Positions 2,912 through 51,799 are shown, counted from the stretch's first letter. The stretch: DNA of 64,000 bases from an uncultured Pseudomonadales bacterium (GCA_964603945.1 CAZRWP010000003.1:6830-70829); one strand, 5' to 3'. The notes: generated by a model not told the origin, from the letters alone. Made by a program: numbers and translations.

Positions 2912-2943
2912 ACCGTTAGTATACCTGGAAGGTTGATGAAAGT

Positions 2944-3028
2944 AGGATCATCCTTGCGTTTAGTTTCCTTGAGAAGGATCATCCTAGGATGATCCTTCCA
3001 GGCAAGCGGAGGGGCAAGGATGATCCTT
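2944..3028. repeat. Family A palindromic intergenic repeat element, copy 1
   Basis: Element layout is AAGGATCATCCTTGC – 16-nt spacer – AAGGATCATCCTAGGATGATCCTTC – 16-nt spacer – GCAAGGATGATCCTT (copy 1 begins AGGAT). The three conserved modules are identical in the 4 copies (2944, 8729, 38571, 60466). Confidence 0.9.
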
Positions 3029-3043
3029 CCAGGTTTAAAAAAA

Positions 3044-4165
3044 TTAAACTGCCACATCGGTCAATGAATAAGACACACCCTTGGTCACACCATGTTTGCG
3101 AATTAGGCCCTTATCCATCAGGTCTTTAAGGTCACGTAAAATGGTGTCGGTTGAAACCATCGGCAAAATCTCATTTAAATCAGATGAGGTGACACGACCT
3201 TGCTCTTGCAAGTACTCCATGATAATCAGCTGACGCTCGGTTAAAGCTACCTGCTGGCCAAGCTTCTTTTGCATGCGGAAATCCTGTGACAGTTTTAAAA
3301 CGGACTGCTTAATTCGGTCAAGCTCAATCGCCAAACCATAGGAAAAGTATTCCAACCAGTATGTCATGTCATTATTAGGACTTTCCTGAACTGACTTGAT
3401 CGCTAGGTAATAGTTTTCAATGTCGTTGTCAAAGTATTGCTCCAGAGAGAAAAACCGCTTAACGTCATAGCCTTCGGCATATAACAAGGCCAATGCCATA
3501 GCGCGGGACATGCGGCCATTTCCCTCAATAAACGGATGGATATTCACTAATTCATAATGCATAACCCCAGCTCGAATAATCTTATGCAAACTTAAAGAAC
3601 TAGAATTATTGATCCAGCCCAAAAATTCACTTATTTGCTGAGGAACCTCTTCCGGAGCCGGCGGTCGGTAGGCCACTTGACCACTTTCCACACTGCGAAC
3701 AACTACTCTTTGGGTGCGGTAAACGCCACATTGTTCAGGCGGGACAATTCGGTGCACCGAGATTGAGTGCAAGGTTTTCAGCATGTCTTCGGTGTAGACT
3801 GGCTGACCCTTGAGATTCTTACCCCAGTCATTAATCCAATCCAAAACCGCTCGGTAATTCAGCACTTCCTGAATGTCGCGCTCCTTACCAACTACACCAG
3901 CCTTGCTGGCTACTTCATCTGGGCTTGTCCCCTCAACTGAGAGGACTCTTTCTGCTTGTTCTTCGCTTAATTCATTACCTTCCAGGCGAGTGCCATGATA
4001 AACCGTTCTAACCTTGGCTTCTTGCTGAAATTTCATTTCCCAAGCTGGCACAATTGGCGAGTGACGAATTACTTCGCGAGAGGCCTCGATACTGGAAATG
4101 TATTGAAGAAGATTGTGTGATATCTGAAATTTTGGTTGATACATGGGTATATTTTCCTCCTGCAA
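3044..4165 (-). CDS. Fic family protein (AMPylation/phosphocholination domain) with C-terminal winged-helix region
   Basis: Fic motif HPFIEGNGRMSRA (HPFx[DE]GNGR); 373 aa. Confidence 0.85.
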   Translation of the reverse strand: MQEENIPMYQPKFQISHNLLQYISSIEASREVIRHSPIVPAWEMKFQQEAKVRTVYHGTRLEGNELSEEQAERVLSVEGTSPDEVASKAGVVGKERDIQEVLNYRAVLDWINDWGKNLKGQPVYTEDMLKTLHSISVHRIVPPEQCGVYRTQRVVVRSVESGQVAYRPPAPEEVPQQISEFLGWINNSSSLSLHKIIRAGVMHYELVNIHPFIEGNGRMSRAMALALLYAEGYDVKRFFSLEQYFDNDIENYYLAIKSVQESPNNDMTYWLEYFSYGLAIELDRIKQSVLKLSQDFRMQKKLGQQVALTERQLIIMEYLQEQGRVTSSDLNEILPMVSTDTILRDLKDLMDKGLIRKHGVTKGVSYSLTDVAV

Positions 4166-4315
4166 GAGAATATTTTAAGTCCTGATGTGAAGGTGGTCGG
4201 CGATCACATTAGGTCTTCGGGTTAAGTATCACCTTTTATTGCAGAAATTGCAAGGAAGAGTTGATTCATGCCGGAATAAATCAAGAATAGATTTGGCAAT
4301 TTGATAAAAATTGGA

Positions 4316-5329
4316 TTAAGTTTTATTCACTGACGACATTAAATTAGCCCAACTTAGGGGCAGCTGATTAACTAAATCCGAGGTGTTGTACATCGCTCTA
4401 CTCTGGGTATATAGCTGATGACCAGCTAATTTACAAAGATAACTACCCACAACCGCCGAAGCAAATGGCTCTGATTTGGCGGCCAAGCCTGCCACCAAGC
4501 CAGCTAGAACATCGCCAGTACCACCCTTGGCCATGCCGGCATTTCCGCCGACCACCGCCACAATCTGCTGATTATTCCAGATCAAATCAGCCTGTCCTTT
4601 AATTATTAGATTGGCGTTGTTTAGTTTGACCGAGACCGCCAACATCAAATCCGCTAAATCTGATGGGAGAAATTTATTTAAATCTTTCCGCTCAACCAGC
4701 ACTGGCTCCAGCGACTGCTCTTTGCCAAATGCCCACACTCCCAATTCTGACTGCACTTCTTTAAGCTGATCAGCAAAATTTGCCAAGGAAGGCGAAAGTC
4801 TTTTAGTTAAATCGGCTAATTCCCGCTGATGAGGTGTCAAAACACTATTAGGTGGTAACCAGCTAGGCCGAACAACTTGCAAGGCGCCGGCATCAATTAC
4901 CCAATGCTTATCAGGAAAATGCTTAAGCACTACCGCTGTAACAGCCTGAGTATCAAACTCCCAGTCCAGCTCATTAAGATCTTCCCAGCGCAAACTGCTC
5001 ATCTTTTCCAGCTTGAATCTGGAACGAAAATCGCGGCGCATACCTGGACCCAACAAAACGCTGTCAGCTTCCTGCAAATAATTAGACAAATCCAATCGCC
5101 TAACCACCACTCCATCCTGAATCCCGATTTTTGCCTCCTGAATGATTTCATTATTTTCCGCCACTGAACTGTAAAACGTCATGTCAACAATGCGCGAGAT
5201 AACTTGAAAGCTCCACTGACTGGCGGCGTGGAACAGATCGCTCCCGCCAATTATTAGAGTGCGACCATTGACTCCCTTATGAGAATCGGCTGGCGGTTCG
5301 TAAATCTGTGCAAGATAAGTTTGAATCAC
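4316..5329 (-). CDS. YjeF C-terminal domain protein, ADP-dependent NAD(P)H-hydrate dehydratase-like
   Basis: N-terminal KGVNGRTLIIGGS and later GGNAGMAKGGTGDVLAGLVAGL match YjeF-C/carbohydrate kinase fold motifs. Confidence 0.6.
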   Translation of the reverse strand: MIQTYLAQIYEPPADSHKGVNGRTLIIGGSDLFHAASQWSFQVISRIVDMTFYSSVAENNEIIQEAKIGIQDGVVVRRLDLSNYLQEADSVLLGPGMRRDFRSRFKLEKMSSLRWEDLNELDWEFDTQAVTAVVLKHFPDKHWVIDAGALQVVRPSWLPPNSVLTPHQRELADLTKRLSPSLANFADQLKEVQSELGVWAFGKEQSLEPVLVERKDLNKFLPSDLADLMLAVSVKLNNANLIIKGQADLIWNNQQIVAVVGGNAGMAKGGTGDVLAGLVAGLAAKSEPFASAVVGSYLCKLAGHQLYTQSRAMYNTSDLVNQLPLSWANLMSSVNKT

Positions 5330-5389
5330 CTAACTAGTATAAGTACAAAACCGAAGAAGTTCTACGTAGGGCTGAGTTTGGGGGGATGA

Positions 5390-5580
5390 GTTTTTTGTGG
5401 AGGGGTAAATTTGGATCGGTTGATTTTGAGGGGACTGAGTTTGTGGGTTGATTTGGGCGAGTTGATTTTGAGGGGACTGAGTTTGTGGGTTGGCTGAATT
5501 TGAAGTCTGAATTTGGCTTGGCTGATTTAGGATTGGCTGATTTAGGGTTGACTAATTTAGGATTGGCTGATTAGGCTGTT
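5390..5580. repeat. G/T-rich tandem repeat tract (two ~42-bp units, then ~5 units of ~15 bp TTGGCTGATTTAGGA), with multiple G-runs
   Basis: GTTGATTTTGAGGGGACTGAGTTTGTGGGTTG occurs twice (5419 and 5461), followed by GGCTGATTTAGGATTGGCTGATTTAGGGTTGACTAATTTAGGATTGGCTGATT; lies between the recF stop and the YjeF-C gene start. Confidence 0.85.
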
Positions 5581-6641
5581 TTGGCTTGGTTGAGGATTTC
5601 TACATCTAGACTCACTTGTTCAGGCACTTCTTGCCCGGGGACAGTCGTAACAATTGCCTGAATTCCCTTGGTAGCTTTCAAAAGGTAGCGACAATTTTCA
5701 TCATCCAATTCTGAAAAAACATCATCTAGAAGCAAAATCGGATCTTCACCAAGTTTTTCCCGCAAATACTCCACTTCTCTTAATTTAAACCAAAGCAAGC
5801 TGAGGCGTTGTTCACCCCTTGAACCAAATGTAGTAATGTCGCGCCAATCGTCGTTGCGCTCAATCATAATTCGCCAGTCATCTTTATGCGGACCTACTAA
5901 TGTGTGTCCAGCCGCCACTTCCTGATTGGCATACTGACGCAGACGGGCTTCAGAAATTATGGAGTGATCATACTCAAGCTGATATTTTTCACGAATCCCC
6001 GGATCAAGCTGGAGCCAGTTGAGATAAGTTTGGCGCTGATCATGAAGGTAGGTGCCGTTTTGGATTAGCAATCTATCCCAGTAAAAAAAGTCCTGACGAG
6101 TGGCTTCATGGTCGCGTAGTTGAAGGATTAGCTTGTTGCGGCGGCGCAGAGCTTGCTCATACTGCGTGAGCGCACGACGGTATTTGGGATCCGTTTGAGT
6201 GAGAATATCGTCCAGGAGCTCGCGGCGTGCCGCTGGCCCCACCTGAAAAATCAACATATCCTCTGGCGTGAACAGCACAGTCGCCATCTCGCCGACAATG
6301 TCGGCGCGCCGCTTCCCTACCCCGTTAATTTTGTAGGTGCGTCGGGCAGTTTTCTTGCCTTGCAGTTGGCCGTGAGTCAGGACTTGCTCCAGCTCCACCT
6401 TCTCACCGCTCTCATGAAGAGAGGTCGATTTGAGGCGCGCCAGGTCAGCTTGCCATTCAATCAGCTCCTCGGTTTTGCCCGTGCGCCAACTTTTACCGGT
6501 AGACAATAAGCGAATCGCTTCGATTAAATTAGATTTACCAGAACCATTGGGCGCAACAAAAACATTGAGGCCCGGCTTGAACTGCCAGACCTGTTCCTCA
6601 ATTGATCGAAAATGCTGAAGCCACAGCCCTTTAATAAGCAT
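5571..6641 (-). CDS. recF: DNA replication and repair protein RecF
   Basis: Walker A PNGSGKSNLIEAI and N-terminal MLIKGLWLQHFRS. Start chosen at the internal Met (6641); the ORF track start at 6680 lies inside the inverted repeat of the adjacent element. Confidence 0.85.
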   Translation of the reverse strand: MLIKGLWLQHFRSIEEQVWQFKPGLNVFVAPNGSGKSNLIEAIRLLSTGKSWRTGKTEELIEWQADLARLKSTSLHESGEKVELEQVLTHGQLQGKKTARRTYKINGVGKRRADIVGEMATVLFTPEDMLIFQVGPAARRELLDDILTQTDPKYRRALTQYEQALRRRNKLILQLRDHEATRQDFFYWDRLLIQNGTYLHDQRQTYLNWLQLDPGIREKYQLEYDHSIISEARLRQYANQEVAAGHTLVGPHKDDWRIMIERNDDWRDITTFGSRGEQRLSLLWFKLREVEYLREKLGEDPILLLDDVFSELDDENCRYLLKATKGIQAIVTTVPGQEVPEQVSLDVEILNQAKTA

Positions 6642-6665
6642 CTGGGCATAAGATATCACACCTGG

Positions 6666-6851
6666 CATTGTTCGCCTCAATCTGGATATAACAGCTATGC
6701 CCAGATCACACCCTTGTCTTTTATTAGTTTTTAGACCCTAAACTTGCCCTAATTTAACCAAAAAAACTAACAAAAAATCTTGAAATATTAGAATTTTGAC
6801 AAGGGTTCAATCTGGAGATAATCACTATATCCAGATTGAGGCGAACTTGTT
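6666..6851. mobile_element. Family C MITE-like element, ~185 bp with ~48-bp imperfect terminal inverted repeats
   Basis: Left arm TTCGCCTCAATCTGGATATAACAGCTATGCCCAGATCACACCCTTGTC and right arm GACAAGGGTTCAATCTGGAGATAATCACTATATCCAGATTGAGGCGAA (ends perfect for 20 bp) flank an AT-rich ~80-bp core. Confidence 0.7.
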
Positions 6852-8635
6852 TAACGCTTAAGCACGGCCATGAAAGCCGATTGCGGAATCTGCACCTGTC
6901 CGATTTCTTTCATGCGCTGCTTGCCGGCCTTCTGCTTTTTGAGCAGTTTTTCGCGTCGGGTTTTGTCGCCACCATATAGCTTGGCGGTCACATCTTTACG
7001 GTAGGACTTAACGGTTTCCCGGGCGATAATCTTGCCACCGATGGCGGCTTGGATCGGGATCTCAAATTGCTGGCGGGGAATTGTTTCTTTGAGTCGCTTC
7101 GTGATGGCGCGTGCAATCCTATCAGCTTGTTCGCGGACCACGATTTGCGACAAAGCCTCTACTTCTTCGCCATGAACCATAATGTTTAATTTAACGGCGC
7201 TTACGGACTCGTAGCCGGTAATGACATATTCCAAAGAGGCAAAACCGGAGGAAACCGACTTCAGTTGATCATGGAAATTCACAATTAGCTCCATTAAGGG
7301 AATTTTGAATACGGCTTTTACGCGGGTGCCGACATCAGCAACTTCCTGCAAGCGGCCGCGATGATCTTCAACTAACTGCATAACCGTGCCCAAATACTGG
7401 CGAGGCGTAAAGATCGTGGCCTTAGTGATTGGCTCACGCAGTTCTAGAACCTGACTGGGATCCGGATATTCACTGGCATGATGAATTGTTTCAATTTCAT
7501 GATTGGTCAACTCTACTTCGTAAGGCACCGATGGCGCGGTTGCCACTAGATCTAAATCGAATTCTCGCTCCAGGCGCTCTTGAACAATTTCTGCATGCAA
7601 AACTCCTAAAAAGCCGACCCTCATGCCATTTCCCAGGGCAGTTGAGTGAGTACCGGTGAATTGTAAGGCCGCGTCATGCAGGCGCAGTTTGTTAATCGCT
7701 TCTTGAAGCAATATAAATTCATCACCGTTGGTTGGATACAAATCCAAATAGACCATTGGTTGAGGAATCTTGTAGCCCGGCAGTGGTTTTACCTTATCCG
7801 CGTTGGAAGCCTGGGTGATGGTGTCGCCAACCTGCACCATGGCGACATCCTTGAGTCCGGTAGCAATATAGCCAACTTCCCCAGCCTTGAGCGACTCAAC
7901 CGAACGGCGGTCTGGGCCAAAAAAACCAATTTCGGTGGGGGAAAATTTGTGATGATTGGCCAAGAGGGAGAGAGGCGCGCGCCGCAGTTCGCCTTCGATG
8001 ACCCGCACGTAAGCTATCACGCCCTGATGGACATCATAAAGCGAGGTGAAAACCAGGGCGCGCGCCGCCTGGTCCACCGGCTCTGGCGCCTCAGGAATTT
8101 TATCGACTATCACTTCAAGTAGGCGGTCAACATTGAGGCCTGACTTAGCTGACACCTCAACCATATCGCTTTCATCAAAGCCAAATGTCTCCATTAGTTC
8201 TAGCGTCACACTTTCCACGTCGGCGGCCGGCAGATCAATCTTGTTAACAACCGGAATAACTTTTAGGTTTAGCGCCTTAGCTTTTTCATAATTAGCCAGC
8301 GTTTGGGCTTGAATACCTTGAGTCGCATCAACCACCAACAAGACTCCCTCGGCGGCGGCCAGCGAACGCGACACTTCGTAACTAAAGTCAACATGTCCTG
8401 GTGTATCAATTAAATTTAACTGATATCGCTTATTTGTCCGAGGATCCTGCCAATTCATGCGAACCGGCGCCATCTTAATAGTGATGCCGCGCTCCTGTTC
8501 AATCGGATTTGAATCCATTAGGCGCTCGGAAAATTCACGTACGCCAATCGTGCTGGTCGCCTGCAACAGGCGATCCGTCAGCGTCGTTTTGCCATGATCA
8601 ATATGAGCGATAATCGAAAAGTTACGGATTGACAT
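6851..8635 (-). CDS. lepA: Elongation factor 4 (LepA)
   Basis: MSIRNFSIIAHIDHGKTTLTDRLL G-domain and 594-aa LepA layout. Confidence 0.95.
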   Translation of the reverse strand: MSIRNFSIIAHIDHGKTTLTDRLLQATSTIGVREFSERLMDSNPIEQERGITIKMAPVRMNWQDPRTNKRYQLNLIDTPGHVDFSYEVSRSLAAAEGVLLVVDATQGIQAQTLANYEKAKALNLKVIPVVNKIDLPAADVESVTLELMETFGFDESDMVEVSAKSGLNVDRLLEVIVDKIPEAPEPVDQAARALVFTSLYDVHQGVIAYVRVIEGELRRAPLSLLANHHKFSPTEIGFFGPDRRSVESLKAGEVGYIATGLKDVAMVQVGDTITQASNADKVKPLPGYKIPQPMVYLDLYPTNGDEFILLQEAINKLRLHDAALQFTGTHSTALGNGMRVGFLGVLHAEIVQERLEREFDLDLVATAPSVPYEVELTNHEIETIHHASEYPDPSQVLELREPITKATIFTPRQYLGTVMQLVEDHRGRLQEVADVGTRVKAVFKIPLMELIVNFHDQLKSVSSGFASLEYVITGYESVSAVKLNIMVHGEEVEALSQIVVREQADRIARAITKRLKETIPRQQFEIPIQAAIGGKIIARETVKSYRKDVTAKLYGGDKTRREKLLKKQKAGKQRMKEIGQVQIPQSAFMAVLKR

Positions 8636-8728
8636 GATTTGCTTGATATTCTTTTAGTTTTTCCCGATATTTATATTAATACTTCCAGAATCACCGATTA
8701 TACCTTGAGTAATGATTATGAGATAACA

Positions 8729-8814
8729 AAGGATCATCCTTGCGCTTGGTTTCCTCAAGAAGGATCATCCTAGGATGATCCTTCCAGGCAAAAGGAGGGG
8801 CAAGGATGATCCTT
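8729..8814. repeat. Family A palindromic intergenic repeat element, copy 2
   Basis: Same three conserved modules as copy 1; lies between the divergent lepA and pilin-like genes. Confidence 0.9.
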
Positions 8815-8837
8815 GTCCATTATTATGACGCGAATGA

Positions 8838-9293
8838 ATGATACAATTTCCGCAGACTATGACTTTGTCAAAATTCATCCGCCGATCAACTTTAACCGCA
8901 ACTGCCTTAACTTCATTGCTAACTGCCTCGCCTGCTTGGGCGCAAGGCGCTTGGGAACAGGGTCGCTGTGTTACTACGGTTCAAATGGGCGAGAGTGCAA
9001 ATGCTGTAACAAAAGAAGTCGCCACCTTTAGAGGAATTGAGTGCTTGCTCGCCAATGTTTTAAATGTGGCCGTCACTTTTGTTGGTCTAGCCGCTTTTGT
9101 CATGATTATTTATGGTGCCTTTTTATATTTAACCAGCGGCGGCAGTAGCAAGGGCACTGAGGCCGGCAAGCAAGCCCTGACTTACGCCATCATTGGTATT
9201 GTCGTGGCTTTAATGGCCTTCTGGATACTCAATCTTATTGCTACTTTCACCGGTGTCAGCGGCATTTTAAACTTTAGTTTGTCTCTAGATTGA
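8838..9293 (+). CDS. VirB2/TrbC-like type IV secretion pilin-like small membrane protein (inferred)
   Basis: Sec-type signal peptide ending AWA|QG, then two hydrophobic helices separated by the short loop TSGGSSKGTEAGKQ; this topology and size are typical of T4SS pilins. No family-specific motif verified. Confidence 0.35.
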   Translation: MIQFPQTMTLSKFIRRSTLTATALTSLLTASPAWAQGAWEQGRCVTTVQMGESANAVTKEVATFRGIECLLANVLNVAVTFVGLAAFVMIIYGAFLYLTSGGSSKGTEAGKQALTYAIIGIVVALMAFWILNLIATFTGVSGILNFSLSLD

Positions 9294-9365
9294 GACTTAA
9301 ATTAATCAGCCATTGTCCACCTCGCTCTCTTGTGTCTCTCGAGATTTCACGTACAATAGTTTTAC

Positions 9366-11252
9366 ATGTACCGGTGGCTATTTAAGACCATTTCCTTTTT
9401 ATTGGCCGTCACTTGGCTGGCGACAAATTTGCTAACTCCGGTGGCAGTTTTGGCACAGGCTGATCCAGAAGACGATGAAACAACTGAAATCGGAGGCGCC
9501 ACCTTCAGTCGAGATGACTTTGAAGCCGCCATCAACTCACCTACTCCTAACCTGGCAAATACAACTGCTTATGTATTAACCACGATCAGTGTAATGTTGG
9601 TAAATTCAGTTAGCCCATCAAAGTTGGTGCAAAACCCAGATGGCGCAGCAATACCAGGAAGTACCCACTACGCCTCCTCCACTCCAAGAACTCTCGACAA
9701 CGCTCTTAATAATGGAGGTTTAATAGGCGGTGTCGCTTTTCTAACCGCCGAGTTGGTTCGCAATCCTCCAGCTTCTGGTTCAGAATACATCGCATACATC
9801 ATGCACGAATCTCCACTGATTCCGCAAACAGCTTACGCTCAGGGGTTTGGAGTTGGCTTTGGCGCTCTAAGTCCTATTCTTAGTACTTGGGCGGCTTTTA
9901 GAGATGTAGCTTACTTTTTATTAACTCTGATTTTCTTGACGATTGGTATTTTGATTATTTTCCGCAAAAAAGTCAGTGGCAATGTAGCCGTAACGGTGCA
10001 AAGTGCCCTCCCCCGTCTGATTATTACCTTAATCTTAATTACTTTTTCCTACGCTATTGCCGGCTTCATTGTCGACCTGATGTTCTGGGCTATTTATTTT
10101 GTGGTGATAATTTTTAGTAGTTTACTGAATGAACCAATAGATTTTAAAATCGCCAGCGACCCTACACTACGAGAATTTGCCCTAGACACCAATTTATTTA
10201 CCATTTTATTCCAATATGTAATTGCTGGAGGAGCCGGTAATGCGGCAAATGCTCTATCAACAATAGTAATGAAAGCTTTAACGGGCATTCCTTTCCTTGG
10301 TGGAGATCCAGGATCGTGGCTAGGAAGTATTCTTAGTTTTGGTTTAGACATTTTATTTACCCTAATAATTGGTGTCGCCATCCTAATTCAATCATTCCGA
10401 GTCTTCTTTCAGCTTCTAATGTCCTACGCTGGATTTGTAATTAATGTCGTACTGAGCCCATTTGTCCTTCTCCAAGGTGCAATCCCTGGCAAAGACCCCT
10501 TTATGAAGTGGTTAAAAAATCTAATTGCCGGCTTAGCTCCCTTTGTCGTGGTGGTGTTTATGCTATTTATGGCCTTCACCTTGTCTGGTAAAAACACTAA
10601 GCCTGGTGTTGGCTATGATGTAAACAACCCCAGCACAGCAGGCCTGCGACTACCACTTCTATTAACTGGTGATGTCTCAGGCAATGGCATCATGGGACTC
10701 TTAGCCATTGGCTTTATCATGCTATTACCAGAAGCCGTAAATATGACCAAGAAAGCTCTCGGCGCCTCCGGCGGACCGCTTGATGAGTTCAAAGACAAAG
10801 CTGTAGGGAACTTCAAGCAAGGTTGGGAAGGAAATAAGTACGTTCCAGGAGCTAAAACAGGTCTGCGCAATATGGCCGCTGGAGCTGGCGCCGGCATGGC
10901 GGGTGGTTTCGTAGCAGGCGACAAATTGTCTCAAGATCGTAGTCGACCGGTCAGGTGGGCTGCAAAAGGTGCCGGTGCTATACTTGGTACTGGCCTCGGC
11001 GGGGCATTCGGAGGAGCATACACAGCTGCCTCTCCGCCTTTAAAAGTGATTAATGAAAAGATTTTAAAACCAGTAACGCCAGTTGTTTCTCGCGTCAACA
11101 AAGAAGGCGTTAGGGTTAATGAGTTTATTGAGCAACAAAGAGCAAGAAAGCAGCTTGAGAGAGACGGCGAGCGACAGGAGGCTTCCACAAACAGAACCAG
11201 TAGTGGTGAGCCCGTTAATCCTTCACAGGGAGGTGGGGCTGTTGCTCCATAA
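9366..11252 (+). CDS. VirB6/TrbL-like polytopic membrane protein (inferred)
   Basis: 628 aa; N-terminal signal/TM, ~140-aa extracytoplasmic loop, 6 or more TM helices, and a Gly/Ala-rich hydrophilic C-terminal tail. AT-rich coding sequence. Confidence 0.35.
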   Translation: MYRWLFKTISFLLAVTWLATNLLTPVAVLAQADPEDDETTEIGGATFSRDDFEAAINSPTPNLANTTAYVLTTISVMLVNSVSPSKLVQNPDGAAIPGSTHYASSTPRTLDNALNNGGLIGGVAFLTAELVRNPPASGSEYIAYIMHESPLIPQTAYAQGFGVGFGALSPILSTWAAFRDVAYFLLTLIFLTIGILIIFRKKVSGNVAVTVQSALPRLIITLILITFSYAIAGFIVDLMFWAIYFVVIIFSSLLNEPIDFKIASDPTLREFALDTNLFTILFQYVIAGGAGNAANALSTIVMKALTGIPFLGGDPGSWLGSILSFGLDILFTLIIGVAILIQSFRVFFQLLMSYAGFVINVVLSPFVLLQGAIPGKDPFMKWLKNLIAGLAPFVVVVFMLFMAFTLSGKNTKPGVGYDVNNPSTAGLRLPLLLTGDVSGNGIMGLLAIGFIMLLPEAVNMTKKALGASGGPLDEFKDKAVGNFKQGWEGNKYVPGAKTGLRNMAAGAGAGMAGGFVAGDKLSQDRSRPVRWAAKGAGAILGTGLGGAFGGAYTAASPPLKVINEKILKPVTPVVSRVNKEGVRVNEFIEQQRARKQLERDGERQEASTNRTSSGEPVNPSQGGGAVAP

Positions 11253-11288
11253 CCATTTAATTAAATTTGAAACTTTTTTATAACCTAA

Positions 11289-14200
11289 TTATTTTTCTGA
11301 CTGAAACAAACCCATTAAGGTCTTTCCTGAATTAAATAGCTCTCCCCATGTGTATTTAACACCCATAAGCTTGAGAAGTTTCATAAATTGAGCCTTGGTA
11401 AATAAGTTTTGTCCCTCGATGTGTGGAAGTTCTTTCTCAACTGAGTCAATCCAGCCCTCTTTGTGAGCAACTCTCAATATTTTCTTAAATCCAGTCACCA
11501 GGGGACCCACCAGCACACCATCAAAATTACGATTACGATACATCTCTCGAATTTCAGCAGAAACTATAATACCAAGTAATAGATAGTCTTCTGGACTTAA
11601 CTTTTCGATAACATCCCCCTCATACGAAGCCATTGTCATCACTTGTGTAAATTTATGCTTAACTAACAAATCTTTTGGATTAACTATTGGACCACCATTT
11701 GGCGGAACAACTGTAAATACCATTTCTTTAACCCCATCATCTGCTACATGAAGAGCTGAAGAATTATACCTCTTGTCCCTCTTCATCTCATCTGGTATCC
11801 AATAAGCCAGATCTACTGGTTCCATTTGAATAAACAAGTGAGAGCGTACGAGTAGTTCTTTATAATCACCATCTCCAGATGAATTTGTAGCACCTGGTTT
11901 TTTCACAATTATTCTTACAAACTGGCCGGATTTCAAAGCTTCCTCTTTAGACACACCCGGATTAATTGGTTCTCCGGCTTCATCATACATCATCCAGTAA
12001 GTGTCAATTTTTCTGATCGTATCAATTACTTCAGCTGCAAATCGCCCATTAACTTTAGCCGGCTGATTCGTTTTAAAATCCAAAGATCCCAACTCAAGCA
12101 GATTTCCTGATGAAAAACCATTCATGCAGCGCTTAGCCAAGGCAAACATATGCTTCATATGTCCAAGCCATTGATAAGTAGCATCCGGAGGTAATTGATC
12201 AAATGGAATGTCAGCCCAACTACGAGCATGAGTAATATGATCTTTAAGAGTTCTTACTACACCATGCCTATTTTTTAGGACAAAATAGTCAAAAAAGGTT
12301 AAAAAGAAGGATTGCATTAAAATTAGAGACTCATTAATAGAACCAGTTTTTTCATCTCTTTCACCATTTAGATACTTCAAGGCGGCAAGAATCGGATTCA
12401 TCAAAATCTGCATTCTTTCAACACCTTCTGGAGATCCAAAGTTTTGTTTTTTTCCTTTTAGTCTCGCATCTTGAAAGTCTGCTTCTAATCCCAACTCACA
12501 CATCCACTCAGCAAAGTACATGGCAATTGTTGAAAACGGATACATTGCCTCCATTGCACTTGAGGATAGTGCTTCTGCGACTCCTTTCTTAATAGATGGA
12601 TCAAATTGATCATTAAAAGCTTTGGCTTCTTCATTGTTGAGACTTTCATTTTTAGCATCTAAGAATTGGTTTAAAGTACCCATAACGCTAGAACCATTTG
12701 GTTCCGATAATCCCCTTGACTCAATCTCAGTAATTTTCCTTTCCACTGACTCACGAATCTTCTCAGGCAATAATTGTGTAATAACTAAATTTCTTCTTGC
12801 CAAAGCCCTGGCAAAAGAATCTGATATCACGCTTGAAGTAGGTAAAACAGACCTCTTTAAACGCTTAGTTACCAATTGTTTAACACTATGAGTACCAAAC
12901 CTGAAACCCGGTCTTAAGCTCGAAGGAATACTAGGTTCAATTATTGTATATTGATCTGAATAAGGAATTGCCATGTCAGGTGGTAAGCCCTGATCATTAC
13001 GAATTTTTTGTTCACGCTTTTCTAGTTCATCAACACTGTTATATCCCCTCCCTCTAAGAAATACTTGTTGCAAAGCTATGCGTATTTGCTCGCCGATTGG
13101 CAAATTATCAGGTCCAAACTCTGACCCTTCTACCCAGCGATTTTGACTCTCAATATGGAGGGGCAATAAGAATCTATCATCAGCAAGTTCTGCCAACAAT
13201 TTCCAAACAATTGGATGAAACCATTTATTCTCTCTTGCGTCAGAAGAATAAAATTCTTCATACTGTTCAACAGTTTTTGACCCCATTGCCCTAGTACCAT
13301 CGGTTGCTAGAAGATCAAGCATCCACAAATACCCATTTAGCATTTCATCTTTAGCTATAAGTGCCGCTCCTCTAAATTCTGGGTCAACTTGCAAGTCATA
13401 TGCTTCAATAACTTGCTTAAGCGTCATTTGCTGAGATGGAATGGCGCTAGCATCGACAGTTTCTGTAAGTGCAAATGCTATACCTCCAATAGGGGGTATA
13501 ACACCTCTTTCAGGATCTCTCTGTCCAAAAGCCTTCTCCATTGCTAATGAAATAAGATGTCTATTAATAACTTCATACCGCTCAACCGGATCTTTTATTT
13601 CTAAAATATACTCAGCCCCATTTTGAACCAGAATATTTATAGCCGGATTGCTCATTTCGCGGTTTTTGCGCTCTTTTAACTTTGCCGCTTCTGCGTCTAA
13701 TTTATCTGCTGCTTTTTTAGCAGCTCTTTCCGCGCGCTTAGCAAGAAGATCTGTTCTACGTTCATCGTAAAGTGCAGCCTTAATTGCTTCTATATCATTG
13801 GTATGAGCGGCATTATTGATAATCTCTAACAGCTGACGTTCTAAATTTAACTTATCTACATCATCAATAATTTTCTGTAGTCTTACCTCCAAGTCTGAAT
13901 CTGTTATTCCAACGAGATCATTGGCTGCCCTCTGCTTTTCCAGGGACTTTTTTTCTGTGTCAAAGGTCAGTAGCTGATCATCAATCTCATTAATTCTTGA
14001 CTCTGTGAGAGAAATGATTATCCTAACTTGATTGAGTTGTTCAGCCTGATCAATTGTCCTGTTTTCTATGTCAACAATTGTTTGTCGCAATAGTTCATCA
14101 ATTTCCTTAAATTCAGGACTTAAATCTATGCTTCCTGCAGCTTTTCTCTTTGGTATGAACTTATCAGCCCACTCTTCAAATGATCTATTGACAAATAAAT

Positions 14201-14591
14201 CTTCATCGTTCATTAGTTCGAGCAACTGATTTAAAAGTTTTTCCTCAATCAACATTTTTTCTTCTTCATCCTTAGAAATTCCAGGAACCGCCTTTTCGAC
14301 CGAAATGTCTTTTATTCGCTGTCTAGTGGTTTCCCTGATTGTATTTAGCCTTACTAATTGATTATTTTCACTTAAAGCTCCTGACCTGGCCTGGTGAATT
14401 AATAATGCTAAATTATCAGTAATTATTCTAAAAGGCGTTCCTGCCTTCAAAATACCTGGGTGAAAATCAGGTGAAGCAATTCCACTTGCATCATAAGCAG
14501 CTTTATTCATTGCGATATCGCGCAGAAATTTAAATGAGGGGTTTATACTTTCAATCTGCGACATAATCAAGTTTATTTTAACATCAATCAA
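11289..14591 (-). CDS. Large (1100 aa) coiled-coil-rich hypothetical protein; no recognisable catalytic motif
   Basis: Long uninterrupted ORF 6 nt downstream of the 435-aa gene on the same strand; central charged heptad-like segments (RAERAAKKAADKLDAEAAKLKERK); no Walker A and no TM. Very AT-rich codon usage. Confidence 0.6.
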   Translation of the reverse strand: MIDVKINLIMSQIESINPSFKFLRDIAMNKAAYDASGIASPDFHPGILKAGTPFRIITDNLALLIHQARSGALSENNQLVRLNTIRETTRQRIKDISVEKAVPGISKDEEEKMLIEEKLLNQLLELMNDEDLFVNRSFEEWADKFIPKRKAAGSIDLSPEFKEIDELLRQTIVDIENRTIDQAEQLNQVRIIISLTESRINEIDDQLLTFDTEKKSLEKQRAANDLVGITDSDLEVRLQKIIDDVDKLNLERQLLEIINNAAHTNDIEAIKAALYDERRTDLLAKRAERAAKKAADKLDAEAAKLKERKNREMSNPAINILVQNGAEYILEIKDPVERYEVINRHLISLAMEKAFGQRDPERGVIPPIGGIAFALTETVDASAIPSQQMTLKQVIEAYDLQVDPEFRGAALIAKDEMLNGYLWMLDLLATDGTRAMGSKTVEQYEEFYSSDARENKWFHPIVWKLLAELADDRFLLPLHIESQNRWVEGSEFGPDNLPIGEQIRIALQQVFLRGRGYNSVDELEKREQKIRNDQGLPPDMAIPYSDQYTIIEPSIPSSLRPGFRFGTHSVKQLVTKRLKRSVLPTSSVISDSFARALARRNLVITQLLPEKIRESVERKITEIESRGLSEPNGSSVMGTLNQFLDAKNESLNNEEAKAFNDQFDPSIKKGVAEALSSSAMEAMYPFSTIAMYFAEWMCELGLEADFQDARLKGKKQNFGSPEGVERMQILMNPILAALKYLNGERDEKTGSINESLILMQSFFLTFFDYFVLKNRHGVVRTLKDHITHARSWADIPFDQLPPDATYQWLGHMKHMFALAKRCMNGFSSGNLLELGSLDFKTNQPAKVNGRFAAEVIDTIRKIDTYWMMYDEAGEPINPGVSKEEALKSGQFVRIIVKKPGATNSSGDGDYKELLVRSHLFIQMEPVDLAYWIPDEMKRDKRYNSSALHVADDGVKEMVFTVVPPNGGPIVNPKDLLVKHKFTQVMTMASYEGDVIEKLSPEDYLLLGIIVSAEIREMYRNRNFDGVLVGPLVTGFKKILRVAHKEGWIDSVEKELPHIEGQNLFTKAQFMKLLKLMGVKYTWGELFNSGKTLMGLFQSEK

Positions 14592-14597
14592 CCAACA

Positions 14598-15905
14598 CTA
14601 ATCTTCTTTCTTAAAAGTAACTCTCGCGGACTGTTCCAAAAGATACTGAATTACTTCAGCAGACAAATTTATTGATTTTTTGTCAGGCAAATCCGATTTT
14701 TTGCCTTCAAGATTTTTTTTGATTGCATAAGCAACTCTTTCCTTAATGTCCTCAATAAGTTTGACTTTTTCTTCAGGATCCTCTGCCTTTTTAGGAGCGG
14801 ATAGAAGATCTCGTACTTCAGTCTGCAAGTTGATCTCTTCAATTTTCTTTTCTTCTTTAAACAAATAAAGGTAAAACTTTTTTTTATCTTCTTCACTTTC
14901 CATTGAGGCTTTCAAGAATTCCATTGTTGTGTCTTCCAAATCATTTTTGGCTTCAACTCCATCTCTATATAACCTGTCTCCGTAGCCAAATCCTGATTTA
15001 TCAACTGCAAATATTAATGAAATAAAATCACTTACACCGGGAATTCCCTCCGACCAGTCATCAACGCCTTTTTGCATATCTTTAAATGAAGAAAAAAATG
15101 AGGCTTGCTTTTCACTATCCCATTTTTCTGACAACCCCTGTCGAGCCACACTATCCTCAATCTGCAGATAAACTTCTAGCAAATGAGATGTCGTCTCATA
15201 CTTAGATAAAAACCAGGCTGAGTGCTCTGAAAACAATTTTTTATCATTTTGAAGCTCCTCCCAAGAAAGTTGATCGTCTTGAGAGCCTGTTAAAAACAGT
15301 CTTTCGAGCTCGGCATGATCTTGAAAGCTTGTTAAAAAAGCCAAAGTATCTAAAGTTTGGTTTTTAAATTTTTCAACCTCAATATCCTCGGTTTCAAGCA
15401 GCATTGTTTTTGTTTGTTCTTGAATAATGGAAGAAATGCGATATTTTAATCTTCGAATGTTGTCTATTTTTTTATTGACATCCTCAGTTTTTCCTGAATC
15501 ATCACTTTTTTCAACCTTTTGAAGATCGCTTTTAAATCTACTCTCAACTTTGTCTAAAAGCTGAGTAAATTCTGCTAGAGGGGGATTATCGCCGTCAAAG
15601 TGCTCTTTTAATAAGAGATTAACACGCCTTTCCAGTTTAAATTCTTCATCATCTCTTTTTATTCCCTCAACTAATTGCTCAATATTAAAATTCCCTACAA
15701 ATTGCTCTGAATTTTCTTCCAAATCCTGGTTCTGAGGAAGATTGTTTTCATTTTCAGACCCAGTCGCTAAGTTGTCAGCACCTTTATCATTTCCATCATT
15801 CTGATTTTCAGGCTGAACCCGAGTTTCCTCTGCTTTTGCTCTAATGTCATCCATCGACATATTTTCACCAGCTATTAAAATCGAAGATTGATTGACTTCT
15901 GCCAT
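14598..15905 (-). CDS. Acidic, low-complexity/coiled-coil hypothetical protein (435 aa), first gene of a two-gene operon divergent from dnaA
   Basis: The ORF starts 217 bp from the dnaA start on the opposite strand; the N-terminal 70 aa are Asn/Glu/Asp/Gln-rich; AT-rich. Confidence 0.55.
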   Translation of the reverse strand: MAEVNQSSILIAGENMSMDDIRAKAEETRVQPENQNDGNDKGADNLATGSENENNLPQNQDLEENSEQFVGNFNIEQLVEGIKRDDEEFKLERRVNLLLKEHFDGDNPPLAEFTQLLDKVESRFKSDLQKVEKSDDSGKTEDVNKKIDNIRRLKYRISSIIQEQTKTMLLETEDIEVEKFKNQTLDTLAFLTSFQDHAELERLFLTGSQDDQLSWEELQNDKKLFSEHSAWFLSKYETTSHLLEVYLQIEDSVARQGLSEKWDSEKQASFFSSFKDMQKGVDDWSEGIPGVSDFISLIFAVDKSGFGYGDRLYRDGVEAKNDLEDTTMEFLKASMESEEDKKKFYLYLFKEEKKIEEINLQTEVRDLLSAPKKAEDPEEKVKLIEDIKERVAYAIKKNLEGKKSDLPDKKSINLSAEVIQYLLEQSARVTFKKED

Positions 15906-15986
15906 ACTTACACAGATTAGTATGGTTTTTGCTTATATGCAACTTTAATAACCGAGATTTTCTCCCCCTTGCCAACCCAACCCGAT

Positions 15987-16006
15987 TGTGGATATATTGT
16001 GGATAA
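15987..16006. promoter_or_regulatory. Two tandem DnaA boxes upstream of dnaA (TGTGGATAT, TGTGGATAA)
   Basis: TGTGGATAA is the exact reverse complement of the consensus TTATCCACA; likely dnaA autoregulation/origin flank. Confidence 0.6.
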
Positions 16007-16122
16007 CTTTACATGGAGGAGCTGAGGGTTTATCTGGAGGAGTGAGTCGCTAAATTCACTCACCTTTTCAACCGGCGACCTCAAGTAATTTTAAAACCAG
16101 CCTGCCTGAATTAGAAATTATT

Positions 16123-17760
16123 ATGACAACTACTGAGCCTCAACTTGTATGGTCCGCAGTCTTACGTGATCTATCCAAATCAATGTCCTCCTCTAGTTTT
16201 TCAACCTGGATTAAGCCATTAAAGATTGAGTCTATTGAGGCAGTGGGAGATGGTCACGCCATAGTTAAAATTTCAGCGGCCAGTCCATATGTGGCTGAGC
16301 AAGCCGAAATGCGCTGTTATGCTCAGTTAAAACAGATCATTGATCGCTCTACGGGGCGTGCTTGCGATTTGACTTTTGATATTAGTGGTGGGGTGGGAAA
16401 TACCGCTGTAAAAGATACTCTGTCAAATGAGAATGGTTCTCAGTCAAATACAATAGATGTTCAGCCAATTGAGGAAGAAGATGATAATCACTCCAATTTT
16501 ATTAACCGCTCTAAAGCTGACAATAAAACCCATCCAACTTATCAAAACGCGCAAATTAATCCCAATATTAGTCATCAAACCGGCCCCAGTAATTCGCCGC
16601 TTTTTAGCCCGGACTCCAGTAGACCATCAAGACCTGGCTCTAAAAAATCCAGCGCAACTAGCGACGCCCCTTCTCTATTTAGTCAGGCTCAAATCCGCAT
16701 TCCCACTGTTGACCGCCACAAGCTGGCGGCCCAAAAAGCCCATCTGCGCGAGGATTATACCTTTGACAGTTTTGCCGTTTCGGGCTCTAATGAAATGGCT
16801 CATGCGGCCGCCAGCGCCGTGGCGGCTAGCCCCGGGCAAGTTTATAACCCGCTGTTTTTGTGGGGCGGAGTTGGTGTTGGCAAAACCCATTTAATGCAGG
16901 CGATTGGCAATACTATTCTCAAAAATGATCCTGACACACCCCTTACTTATTGCATGGGTGAAGAATTTTTAAATGAGATCATTGGGGCAATTCGTAGTAA
17001 GCGTACTTTGGAATTTAAGGAGAAATATCGCCGGCTTAAAGTTTTACTAATTGATGATATTCAGTTTATTGCCGGCAAAGATACGGCTCAGGAAGAGTTC
17101 TTTCACACTTTTAACGCCATTACCCGAAGTGGTGGGCAGGTAATTATGACCTCTGACCGACCACCTTATGAAATTCATCCTTTAGAGGACCGTTTAAGAA
17201 GCCGGTTTGAGGGCGGCCTAACAATTGATATTCAGCAACCGACTTTTGAGCTTAGAACAGCAATTTTACTTATCAAATCGCAGAAAATGGGACTTGATCT
17301 ACCAATGAATTTGGCTCAAATTATTGCCTCGGAGGTGGAGAGCACCCGTAAATTGGAAGGTGTAATTTACAAACTCCACAGCGCTCACCGTTTTCAAAAC
17401 AAACCACTTGATGAACATTTAGTCAGGGAAGTTTTAGGCAATGAAAGCCGGCCGGTAATTTCAAGAAAAAAACTTAAACCATCTGCTATTTTACGGGCGG
17501 TAACGTCACATTTCCACGTCAGCGCCAGCACTCTCCGCGGCCCATCTCGCAAGAAAGACTACGTCACCGCCCGCCACATCGCTATGTACTTACTCAAATC
17601 GGAATTAGATGTTCCCTACGCAGAAATCGGCCATTCCTTTGGCGGGCGCGACCACACTTCAATTATGCACGCCGTTTCTAAAATTGAGAATGAAATGGCC
17701 GATAGCTCAATTATCAATCAGCATGTCAATGCGATCCGGTCTTCGCTGTCGGCAATGTAG
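16123..17760 (+). CDS. dnaA: Chromosomal replication initiator DnaA
   Basis: AAA+ Walker A GGVGVGKTHL, the C-terminal DNA-binding domain and typical position before dnaN. Confidence 0.95.
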   Translation: MTTTEPQLVWSAVLRDLSKSMSSSSFSTWIKPLKIESIEAVGDGHAIVKISAASPYVAEQAEMRCYAQLKQIIDRSTGRACDLTFDISGGVGNTAVKDTLSNENGSQSNTIDVQPIEEEDDNHSNFINRSKADNKTHPTYQNAQINPNISHQTGPSNSPLFSPDSSRPSRPGSKKSSATSDAPSLFSQAQIRIPTVDRHKLAAQKAHLREDYTFDSFAVSGSNEMAHAAASAVAASPGQVYNPLFLWGGVGVGKTHLMQAIGNTILKNDPDTPLTYCMGEEFLNEIIGAIRSKRTLEFKEKYRRLKVLLIDDIQFIAGKDTAQEEFFHTFNAITRSGGQVIMTSDRPPYEIHPLEDRLRSRFEGGLTIDIQQPTFELRTAILLIKSQKMGLDLPMNLAQIIASEVESTRKLEGVIYKLHSAHRFQNKPLDEHLVREVLGNESRPVISRKKLKPSAILRAVTSHFHVSASTLRGPSRKKDYVTARHIAMYLLKSELDVPYAEIGHSFGGRDHTSIMHAVSKIENEMADSSIINQHVNAIRSSLSAM

Positions 17761-17879
17761 TTTTTTTGCCCTGCCCTACTCCACCTCGATTTCCTGTCAA
17801 CTTGATTCTAATTGTTATAAGAATGTTTGTTTTACCTGGCAAAATCACATCAAATTAGTAAAAAGCAATGGATATTGAA

Positions 17880-18160
17880 CAACTCGGAGGATAACTAATT
17901 TTACAAAAAAGAAAGGGTGTCCAGATAAAAAATCGCATTTTACTCAATTGCCATAAGTTATTTTTCCACAACTTATGCACAATTGTGAATAAATTCGGTG
18001 GATATCCTGTGAGTAACCGCGGTAAAACTTATCCACTTCTCCCCATCAGCCATCATCCAAGAAAAAGTTATTCGCTTTTTAAATAAGTTATCCCTACTCC
18101 TCCACAAAAGTATCCACTGTCTGATAGAGTACACTCACACACGAAACAAAAACGAACTAG
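17880..18160. promoter_or_regulatory. Putative oriC in the dnaA–dnaN spacer: AT-rich tract plus a cluster of DnaA-box-like 9-mers
   Basis: TTTTCCACA (17962), GTGGATATC (17998), TTATCCAC (18029), AGTTATCCC (18087) and AGTATCCAC (18111), plus an AT-rich stretch at 17880–17960. Confidence 0.55.
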
Positions 18161-18229
18161 TTGAGCGGCGCCGGCGGAGTTTTACACTTGTTCGCACGCC
18201 TACTACTACTTCTACTAGAATATATATAC

Positions 18230-19339
18230 ATGAAGTTAATAATCGAACAATCCAACTTAGTTACTAAGCTTAATTCAGCAAGTAGGTTTACAGCTAATAA
18301 AAGCTCGTCTCCTCTTTTAAGCGGATACTACCTGTCAGCTTTAAAGGATAATCAATTAATTATTAGAACCAGTTCTGGCTCAGTTGTTTATGAAAGTCGC
18401 GTGGAGGCAAAAGTTGAGTCAGTTGGCTCCTGCGCAGTTCCGGCAGGTCTAATGCTCTCAATTATTAAATCTTTAGAAGCTGGAGAAATTGAGTTTAATC
18501 TAACTGAGGATAGCTTGGAAATCGTTCAAAAAAGATCCCGTTCACAAATTTCCATTATGTTGGCTGATAATTTTCCAGATCTTCATCGGGATCAACTTAA
18601 AGAAAAACTGGTTTTGCCAGTTGAGGAATTCGTTAAATATGGCCAGCGCGTTCTGATCGCCGCTAGTACAGATGAAACTAAACCGGTTTTAACATCCTTA
18701 GCGATGGAAATGTCTCAGCCGAATGCTTTAGTTACAACTGATGGATTTAGACTCTATCGAAATCAAGTTGACTTATCTCTGGACGAGGAAGGTCGGTTTT
18801 TGTTGCCGGCCAGAGTCCTCAAAGATTTCTTTGCCATTTTAGAAAAAGATTCAGCATCAACTATTACTTGCTGGACCGATTCGGATCGGCAAGAAATCTT
18901 ATTTGACCTTGGTGAAACAGCTTTGCAGGTTAGCGCGATTCAGGGAGAGTTCCCACCATATCAGTCAATTATTCCGGATAACGTTGCTTTTTCACTGCAA
19001 GTTGATAAAGAATCTCTGGTTCAGCGTGTCAATCAGGCCATGATTTTTGCCCGCGAATTTTCATCCATTATTGTTTTTGACATGGATAAAAAAGACTTGG
19101 TAATTTCATCTCAAACTAATACTAAGGGGAAAACGGAATCTAGATTAACTTGTAACTCAATTGAGGGTGAACCGGTTCGTTTTGCTTGTAATGGCAAGTA
19201 CGTCCAGGATTATTTAAACGCTACGGAAGCTGAAGAAATCAGGATTCAGGGTAACGAATCGTTAAAACCAGTTTTGTTTTCTGATGCTGAAAGCGACCGC
19301 GAGCTTTATCTGATTATGCCTTTTAAATTACAGGAGTAA
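18230..19339 (+). CDS. dnaN: DNA polymerase III beta subunit (sliding clamp)
   Basis: Start at MKLIIEQSNL (internal Met of the ORF-track entry beginning 18161); ~370 aa; position after dnaA. Confidence 0.85.
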   Translation: MKLIIEQSNLVTKLNSASRFTANKSSSPLLSGYYLSALKDNQLIIRTSSGSVVYESRVEAKVESVGSCAVPAGLMLSIIKSLEAGEIEFNLTEDSLEIVQKRSRSQISIMLADNFPDLHRDQLKEKLVLPVEEFVKYGQRVLIAASTDETKPVLTSLAMEMSQPNALVTTDGFRLYRNQVDLSLDEEGRFLLPARVLKDFFAILEKDSASTITCWTDSDRQEILFDLGETALQVSAIQGEFPPYQSIIPDNVAFSLQVDKESLVQRVNQAMIFAREFSSIIVFDMDKKDLVISSQTNTKGKTESRLTCNSIEGEPVRFACNGKYVQDYLNATEAEEIRIQGNESLKPVLFSDAESDRELYLIMPFKLQE

Positions 19340-35772: not shown

Positions 35773-36330
35773 ATGCAATACAAAACTCCCTTTGCTCTTA
35801 CGCCTGCCCTGCGACGTTTTTTGGAACCGGAATTAGTCGATCATATTCAGGACAGTTTGACTTTAGTTCATCAGATGGAGGAGCCGGATCACTATAGTAC
35901 GTATTACGATTACGCCTTTATGGTTTTTCCAATTGCCAAAGCGTATGAAGGGTTTTTAAAACAATATTTTGTTAAATTGGGCGTGATAGATCAAGACAGC
36001 TACCGCGATCGTCATTTTAGAGTGGGGCGCAGTTTTAATCCCGACTTGCCCAATCGCCTTAAAGATAATGTTTGGATTTATGATGATGTCCGTGCGTTTT
36101 GCGGAGAAAAAACCACCAGATCTTTATGGAATATGTGGGTGGATGGGCGAAATCACACTTTTCATTACTTTTCTGACAACCGCAACCGGCTTAATTATGC
36201 CCAAGCCAAGCGTTTAGTTGAGCGATTTTTAGAATCAATGGAGTTAGCTATGGTTTGTCATTTGCAGAGATCTGCCCCTAAAGCAAAGCAGAGCTTAAGT
36301 ACAAAGGCGGAAGTTCAAACTTCGGCATAA
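35773..36330 (+). CDS. hypothetical protein
   Basis: 185-aa ORF. Confidence 0.35.
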   Translation: MQYKTPFALTPALRRFLEPELVDHIQDSLTLVHQMEEPDHYSTYYDYAFMVFPIAKAYEGFLKQYFVKLGVIDQDSYRDRHFRVGRSFNPDLPNRLKDNVWIYDDVRAFCGEKTTRSLWNMWVDGRNHTFHYFSDNRNRLNYAQAKRLVERFLESMELAMVCHLQRSAPKAKQSLSTKAEVQTSA

Positions 36331-37956: not shown

Positions 37957-37975
37957 GATATCAACTTCGCTGTTT

Positions 37976-50299: not shown

Positions 50300-51799
<1,500 letters not shown>

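Follow-up and report, generated by a model that had tools for sequence, protein, structure and literature searches.

We analysed a stretch of 64,000 nucleotides (CAZRWP010000003.1:6830-70829; hereafter the window, along whose full length all positions are counted) from a lineage of the Patescibacteria, an ultra-small bacterium. Next to dnaA this window carries two adjacent minus-strand genes for soluble proteins, a small acidic one of 435 amino acids (aa) and a large one of 1100 aa, which together with the tail of a neighbouring membrane-protein gene constitute a multi-allelic cassette exchanged by recombination. Along with the membrane-protein gene and a pilin-like gene, the pair makes up a core four-gene module tied to genes of a type IV secretion system (T4SS). 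We assign a probability of about 0.4 to the reading that the pair encodes a recombination-exchanged, strain-specific and host-facing T4SS substrate, which would be the large protein, and an acidic partner, which would be the small one. An effector accompanied by a chaperone had already been proposed by a model that was given the nucleotide sequence only (the sequence-only reading), and this idea, unproven as it is, is the one that we favour.

A conserved slot beside dnaA

For comparison we used twelve further distinct genomic loci from relatives, found through a relative of the small protein (L001), membrane-protein scans and look-ups of large-protein relatives. The pair is carried by L001, L002, L003, L004, L005, L007, L012, L013, L014, L022, L023, L024 and L025, among which L001 is a 134-kb metagenome contig, L002 is Patescibacteria group bacterium UBA1396, and L004 and L025 are 99.7% identical to each other. 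In all twelve distinct loci the pair was found in the same slot, with the small gene followed by the large gene and the latter converging on the homologue of the membrane gene. The same gene order extends from a carbohydrate kinase gene to DUF4012 in L001, which encodes a 31%-identical relative of the small protein, and the seven loci with enough flank also preserve the wider arrangement on the lepA side, up to the limit of each locus. A pilin-like gene lies beyond the membrane gene in nine of the twelve, namely those extending far enough (recognised by Pfam annotation in L001, L013, L014, L022 and L025, by protein similarity in L001 and L002, and by DNA similarity only in L005); it was not seen in L023. 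This gene is followed by lepA in L001, L002, L013, L014, L022 and L025, and L005 extends no further than the end of lepA. Taken over the whole clade, the pair keeps its place among genomes whose LepA proteins are only 75% identical.

Replacement of the slot content within a species

Compared by blastn with L025, which belongs to the same species, the window aligned at 94.5% identity over 2947–10831, gave nothing over 10832–15957 and aligned again at 97.4% over 15958–19293. The breakpoints against L001 were 10831 and 15811, and the right breakpoint was located at 15958 against L004 and at 15954 against L019. On the left the breakpoint was the same in every comparison, falling at about residue 488 of the membrane protein where a Gly/Ala-rich tail begins. 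In agreement with this position, residues 1 to ~497 of the membrane protein are 34–70% identical in all relatives and conservation ends near 495–499, the alignment stopping at these residues also in six more distant relatives. The tails of the different cassette types are all Gly/Ala-rich, with an anchor motif that is not shared. The right breakpoint lies either in the leader of the small gene or within its initial codons; owing to its position at 15811 in the comparison with L001, the first 32 residues of the two small proteins are near-identical (30/32).

Three alleles devoid of DNA similarity to one another thus occur within one species, in the window, in L001 and in L004/L025, between flanks of 94.5–98% DNA identity. 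Between the window and L001, LepA is 99% identical, DnaA 89% (identical outside a linker) and the membrane protein 70% with an identical core, whereas the small proteins share 31% and similarity of the large protein can be recognised only in its last 176 residues (27%). Relative to L004/L025 the DnaA proteins are 99.3% identical, yet the 466- and 846-aa pair proteins of these loci are not detectably similar to those of the window. Across the three alleles, identities amount to 0–31% for the small and 0–27% for the large protein.

The same pattern was observed in the wider set. A profile of the window type, termed type A, matches the L001 and L002 large proteins along their entire length (7e-94 and 6e-28, respectively) and does not find those of L003, L004 or L005, and profile–profile comparison returned a probability of 0.2% both for type A against the L003/L005 type and for the L003/L005 type against L004. 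The large proteins of L003 and L005 match each other at E=1e-84 though their membrane proteins are only 50% identical, and L002 and L005, with membrane proteins 95% identical, have unrelated large proteins. Judged from these sequences, the distribution of allele types conflicts with the phylogeny of both flanks and genomes. Apart from the one in L001, relatives of the small protein are barely detectable; across the types the small proteins are joined by a chain of weak similarities, and the large-protein types may be extremely diverged homologues or truly unrelated, both of which fit the sequences.

Flanks differing by only 2–5% could not have yielded such divergence in place, and on the evidence of these alignments the segment must therefore have been exchanged by recombination between strains. 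This exchange probably took place by homologous recombination in the flanks, because the edges bear no repeats, integrase or tRNA: a Pfam scan revealed no integrase or transposase between lepA and dnaA, a search for flanking repeats gave chance-level short matches only, and the nearest tRNA is 37 kb away. The metagenome contigs L008, L018 and L019 end at cassette edges, as is expected wherever a sample contains strains with different alleles, and a strain-variable slot explains the assembly breaks at this place. A diversity-generating retroelement was rejected as the source of variation, as the divergence extends over whole genes, no template/variable repeat pair is present in 10500–16300 and no reverse transcriptase was found among the scanned open reading frames (ORFs).

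The segment 8712–10831, comprising the pilin and membrane genes, shows an allele history of its own, with 82% DNA identity to L001 inside the continuous 94.5% match to L025. The outer flanks are 96–98% identical to L001, and no DNA match to L001 was obtained over 8713–8951, corresponding to the pilin N-terminus.

The sequence-only reading took the pair for a module that had been acquired horizontally and inserted upstream of dnaA. The horizontal part of this proposal holds for the content of the slot, which is exchanged, and the insertion does not, because the slot is conserved in all twelve further loci. A recently acquired foreign island or mobile element beside dnaA would account for the low guanine-plus-cytosine (GC) content and the deviating tetranucleotide usage relative to the rest of the window. 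We nevertheless find it hardly credible, as the pair occupies the same place throughout a clade of such LepA divergence, no integrase, att-like repeat or tRNA accompanies it, and its GC is equally low in every allele. In addition, no match was obtained on plasmids or phages by tblastn with the large protein, nor on viral contigs with the membrane protein. An integrated element was rejected as contradicted by the synteny of the slot in relatives.

Composition and constraint of the gene pair

Both ORFs were found exactly where the sequence-only reading had placed them. The 6-nt gap that it reported between them holds for the TTG start of the large gene and widens to 33 nt with the ATG start at 14564, nine codons later, which is used in the public gene call of a near-identical large protein (1091 aa). 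Over the loci, the small proteins range from 306 to 692 aa and the large proteins from 846 to 1239 aa. The acidic character that had been noted for the small product was borne out (isoelectric point, pI, see Table 1) and recurs in seven of seven loci measured, with pI values of 4.4–4.7.

The AT-richness of the pair, previously estimated from hand counts, was equally evident in a windowed analysis. In 1-kb windows the mean GC content is 37.1% compared with 44.9 ± 3.4% outside, where only 0.4% of the windows are equally low, and the tetranucleotide distance of the pair from the rest of the window is 0.323 compared with 0.150 ± 0.024 for other 4.6-kb chunks (maximum 0.221). The GC content at third codon positions is 0.26–0.34 for the pair versus 0.39–0.53 for the flanks in nine of ten loci, covering all allele types. 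Because low GC is found in every allele of every genome, it is a property of the gene pool and not the mark of a recent foreign insertion. A scan for promoters and terminators yielded a signal no better than that of shuffled sequence.

All alleles retain long ORFs. The allele of the window also occurs in L020 at 98.5% DNA identity, and the two copies of the small gene differ at 22 synonymous and 9 non-synonymous positions (pN/pS = 0.10), indicating that the small gene is under purifying selection within one allele; the reading as non-functional ORFs, which this ratio contradicts, was rejected.

No match was obtained for the window pair in Pfam, NCBIfam, PHROGs, PADLOC models or PDB sequences. 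Conserved Walker A, HExxH, LPxTG and CxxC motifs, sought in the pair and its relatives, were absent, and a hydropathy scan of the pair detected no segment at the threshold for a transmembrane (TM) helix or a signal peptide, in line with the sequence-only reading. The other allele types likewise have no TM helix or signal peptide, except for one hydrophobic stretch in the large protein of L005/L007.

Defence loci are typically strain-variable, AT-rich and horizontally exchanged, and the anomalous composition and the allele replacement observed here would both be explained by a novel two-gene anti-phage or anti-plasmid defence system in a variable hotspot. Against this, the PADLOC comparison gave no meaningful match (best E-values of 0.0088 and 0.037, at 10–13 bits, for the window's own pair only, and none for four of the six proteins), and there is no ATPase, nuclease or other enzymatic motif. 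Moreover, unlike defence islands of the accessory kind, the slot is occupied in all genomes and invariably linked to the pilin and membrane genes. We therefore rejected a defence system, which we consider very unlikely.

The large protein and its C-terminal region

When 1.84 billion representative proteins were searched exhaustively with HMMER, only 21 relatives of the large protein were retrieved, with lengths of 879–1239 aa and no Pfam domains, all of which align to its C-terminal ~400 aa. A word-indexed protein search based on a 25-sequence profile retrieved nothing beyond the cluster of the query itself, and the profile of the large family found no match among PDB sequences. In agreement with these alignments, the conservation profile identified residues 680–1100 as the best conserved part of the protein.

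AlphaFold2 modelling with the 21-sequence alignment resulted in a predicted local distance difference test score (pLDDT) of 69.4 and a predicted template modelling score of 0.63; the pLDDT of the single-sequence model was 37. The model consists of long helical hairpins at ~52–312, followed by mixed alpha/beta regions at ~360–620 and ~690–1040, the second of which overlaps the best conserved part. The long helices are thereby predicted in the first third of the protein and not in its middle third, where the sequence-only reading had put them. A Foldseek search of this model against PDB and the BFVD viral models gave nothing below E=0.04, the fold similarity being limited to the helical hairpins and amounting to generic coiled-coil likeness. 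Sequence, profile and structure searches, run on the large protein, thus assigned it to no known family or fold, and the relationship to SMC or another housekeeping family that had been named as the ordinary explanation did not emerge beyond that generic similarity.

The last 15 residues of the large protein form a flexible tail with a mean net charge of +1.5, compared with −0.3 for 35 other window proteins (Mann–Whitney p=7e-6, a value inflated by treating related sequences as independent). This tail is net-positive in 23 of 27 large proteins, representing all types. Substrates of VirB/D4 systems carry positively charged C-terminal signals, as described in the Agrobacterium literature. No known secretion-signal domain, including XVIPCD, was detected at the C-terminus of the large protein.

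The extreme allelic diversity, the joint replacement of two adjacent genes and their exchange by recombination would also suit a polymorphic toxin–immunity or kin-discrimination pair, delivered by the T4SS against competing bacteria or epibiont strains, with the large protein as toxin and the small one as antidote. Some T4SS that kill bacteria are known to use effector/immunity pairs together with a conserved C-terminal recognition domain, and the C-terminal region is the best conserved part here as well. We consider such a pair distinctly unlikely, as no toxin domain and no nuclease, lipase or peptidase motif was found in the 27 large proteins. The partner is large and encoded upstream, not small and immediately downstream, there is one pair per genome with no orphan immunity genes seen in the examined loci, and the order is the reverse of the classic one, in which a conserved N-terminus precedes a variable C-terminal toxin.

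Genomic neighbourhood

The features of the cassette and of its immediate surroundings are compiled in Table 1.

Table 1 Cassette, module genes and origin-side flank in the window
Feature	Position	Strand	Basis
Gene for a T4SS pilin-like protein of 151 aa, opening the conserved four-gene module	8838..9293	+	Pfam PF18895, E=1.2e-7, 32.2 bits (cut-off 26.6)
Polytopic membrane protein gene, 628 aa	9366..11252	+	ORF, hydropathy scan
Replaceable cassette: membrane-gene tail, large gene, small gene and its 5' leader	10832..15957		blastn against L025
Large protein gene	11289..14591	-	ORF, 1100 aa from TTG start
Small acidic protein gene, first of the pair	14598..15905	-	ORF, 435 aa, pI 4.63
Two adjacent DnaA boxes, ATATCCACA and TTATCCACA, just outside the cassette	15987-15995, 15998-16006	-	Pattern search
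dnaA, conserved right flank	16123..17760	+	Pfam Bac_DnaA, E=3e-62

In addition to its Pfam assignment, the pilin gene gave a weak NCBIfam match to a pilin-like conjugal transfer protein. The membrane protein has a signal-peptide-like N-terminus and ~7 TM helices preceding its Gly/Ala-rich C-terminal tail. The large gene converges on the membrane gene with 36 bp between their stop codons in the window. ORFs of 58–64 aa lie between the large and membrane genes of L014 (13236–13430), L012 (11749–11925) and L024 (13557–13751); they are mutually dissimilar and have no counterpart in the window, where only the 36 bp are available.

On the other side, 217 bp separate the start of the small gene from that of dnaA, which lies on the opposite strand, with two DnaA boxes in between, as the sequence-only reading had described. 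These boxes sit in a patch of ~50 bp (15959–16009) that is conserved in all relatives, as seen by blastn against L002, L003 and L005. Four further DnaA-box-like sites are located within 76 bp of the dnaA–dnaN spacer (17962–18037) and probably represent the principal cluster of the origin; the minimum of the cumulative GC skew lies near 20–21 kb, and the origin was therefore placed here. The DnaA linker between the N-terminal and ATPase domains (residues ~95–185) differs strongly in length and sequence from that of L001, the two proteins being otherwise identical. Downstream of dnaA follow dnaN (Pfam), then rpmH, rnpA and yidD as read from the identical contig L017, and then yidC. Beyond the pilin gene lie lepA, recF and genes for a carbohydrate kinase, a Fic protein and an ATP-dependent ligase. 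The genes rpoB and rpoC (39330–46636) were assigned from size and position only.

Several further features of the window were recorded. An intergenic nested palindromic repeat of ~85 nt with AAGGATCATCCT arms occurs at 2944–2997, 8730–8783 and 38572–38625 on the plus strand and at 60497–60550 on the minus strand. Two of the copies, folded as RNA over 2936–3035 and 8721–8825, give about −52 kcal/mol, one copy is placed between lepA and the pilin gene, and related copies are present in L008 and L025. The repeat may be an element resembling repetitive extragenic palindromes or miniature inverted-repeat transposable elements, or a bidirectional terminator. The rRNA operon appears split: the 16S rRNA gene (50300–51798) is followed only ~1.4 kb later by tRNA-Ile and tRNA-Ala (53234–53603), an HD-domain ORF (52497–53027) lies between them on the opposite strand, and no 23S rRNA is found within the window. 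An AdoCbl-II (cobalamin) riboswitch at 58107–58196 (47 bits, gathering score 36.5) precedes a 283-aa ORF (58330–59181) that has no Pfam match, and a 671-aa ORF at 30399–32414 likewise has no Pfam match.

Discussion

Much of the diversity of uncultivated bacteria belongs to the Patescibacteria, which live attached to bacterial hosts. As reported in PMC12102498 and PMC10633639, their T4SS genes commonly lie beside dnaA, dnaN, rnpA and rpmH, the systems comprise VirB2-like pilins of PF18895 and no relaxases, and Southlakia epibionticum requires the T4SS encoded next to dnaA by SEML1_0006-0019 for its epibiotic growth. The T4SS is thus essential for epibiotic life in one genetically tested species, and no substrate or specificity factor is known. 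The locus described here, with its PF18895 pilin gene, is a concrete candidate for strain-specific host interaction. Among the relatives, L024 carries within 10 kb a gene of the PrgI family (29.5 bits, cut-off 27) and another with weak similarity to TraC_F_IV, and in L012 the gene for a 1142-aa CHAP protein adjoins the module.

Several observations weigh against a T4SS substrate. The window contains no gene for VirB4, VirD4, PrgI, TrsD or a coupling protein, and the membrane protein matched nothing in Pfam or among PDB sequences at E-values up to 10, VirB6/TrbL included. With neither a VirB4, PrgI or coupling-protein gene nor a VirB6 match in the window, membership in a T4SS is therefore argued from the pilin gene and the relatives. 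Furthermore, the charged-tail signal is modest and derived from non-independent sequences, and the AlphaFold2 modelling covers the type A large protein alone. As to the extent of the search for VirB4, no Pfam match to VirB4/TraC/AAA_10 was obtained in 30 of the 35 other window ORFs of at least 150 aa, the remaining five (35773–39333, 175–280 aa) being too short for VirB4; a cell-wall hydrolase gene of the T4SS set was not found in the window either. The membrane protein can be called VirB6-like by position and topology only, and VirB6 is often too divergent for detection, according to PMC12102498.

The main rival explanation takes both proteins as cytoplasmic structural or accessory parts of the machine, for example as a docking platform on the membrane-protein tail, which would vary by co-evolving with this tail and with substrates encoded elsewhere. 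The presence of the pair in every genome examined is as one would expect of a core component, the left breakpoint is fixed at the start of the tail, so that tail and pair travel together, and neither protein has a signal peptide or a TM helix. Monoderm-type T4SS moreover hold several class-specific components of unknown function, according to PMC12102498. Such parts, however, are not normally swapped for unrecognisable versions within a species while the pilin and membrane core remain 82–94% identical, and large proteins of 846 and 1100 aa without detectable similarity would need to fit one conserved core. For these reasons we consider machine parts an unlikely explanation.

Under the favoured reading of a secreted substrate with its partner, the pair would be the variable half of the four-gene module in a Patescibacteria T4SS gene set beside the origin. 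The slot itself is core, and its content would be an allele drawn from a pool of very old and very divergent versions. Strains would swap these alleles via homologous recombination in the conserved flanks, with the left crossover at the start of the membrane-protein tail and the right one in the first codons or the leader of the small gene. After synthesis in the cytoplasm, the large protein would be passed to the secretion apparatus, for which its conserved C-terminal ~400 residues and the flexible positive tail could provide the recognition part. The small acidic protein would serve as a dedicated partner, presumably a chaperone or an adaptor and less likely an immunity or regulatory protein. 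The diversity might persist because the host bacterium is the target of the pair or perceives it, in which case different alleles would suit different hosts or escape host resistance. The data show the conserved gene order, the replacement of alleles, the constraint within an allele, the linkage to T4SS genes and the lack of known domains; export, the partnership of the two proteins and the role in host specificity are what we infer. The combination of constraint within an allele and unrecognisable replacement between strains is the pattern expected at an interface with a host or a competitor.

More tentatively, and with some doubt, we suggest that the pair could represent a new class of host-interaction determinants in Patescibacteria. 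These would consist of a Sec-independent, T4SS-delivered protein of novel fold and its acidic partner, kept beside the origin as an ancient multi-allelic cassette that is shuffled between strains and lineages, with the allele deciding which hosts can be exploited.

Relation to known systems

The origin-proximal position is shared with SMC proteins. The pair differs from these in the lack of ATPase heads, Walker A/B motifs and a hinge, and with no sequence or profile match either, an SMC-like or chromosome-partition protein was rejected.

In its overall arrangement the locus resembles the monoderm (MPF-FATA-like) T4SS of Patescibacteria, such as SEML1_0006-0019 of Southlakia epibionticum (PMC12102498, PMC10633639): it is chromosomal, adjoins dnaA and the origin, encodes a VirB2-like pilin of PF18895 and a large polytopic membrane protein, has no relaxase and shows variable pilins. 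Unlike in those systems, the window is devoid of VirB4, TrsD and PrgI, and the membrane protein has no VirB6 match. The two soluble proteins and the allele replacement are not described for Patescibacteria T4SS in the consulted portions of PMC12102498 and PMC10633639, and our literature searches found no description of the pair or its allele replacement.

Similar to the X-Tfe/X-Tfi pairs of Xanthomonas and Stenotrophomonas and to VirB/D4 substrates, the large protein is encoded beside secretion genes, has no Sec signal and is accompanied by one adjacent partner gene. Its C-terminal part is the most conserved and ends in a flexible, positively charged tail, which may correspond to the recognition region of T4SS effectors. 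In contrast to X-Tfe/X-Tfi, no XVIPCD, other known domain or toxin fold was found in the pair, and the partner is large, acidic and encoded upstream.

The sharp breakpoints in conserved flanks are those of allelic cassette loci such as capsule and O-antigen, pherotype, bacteriocin and contact-dependent inhibition modules, with which the locus also shares alleles too divergent to have originated in place, incongruence with the genome phylogeny and purifying selection within an allele. It differs from these in a gene content of unknown biochemistry that is tied to a T4SS pilin and membrane module at the origin of an epibiotic bacterium with a reduced genome. There are precedents for cassette loci kept by recombination, for variable genes next to secretion systems and for T4SS genes at the origin of Patescibacteria; new here are the two protein families, which are undescribed.

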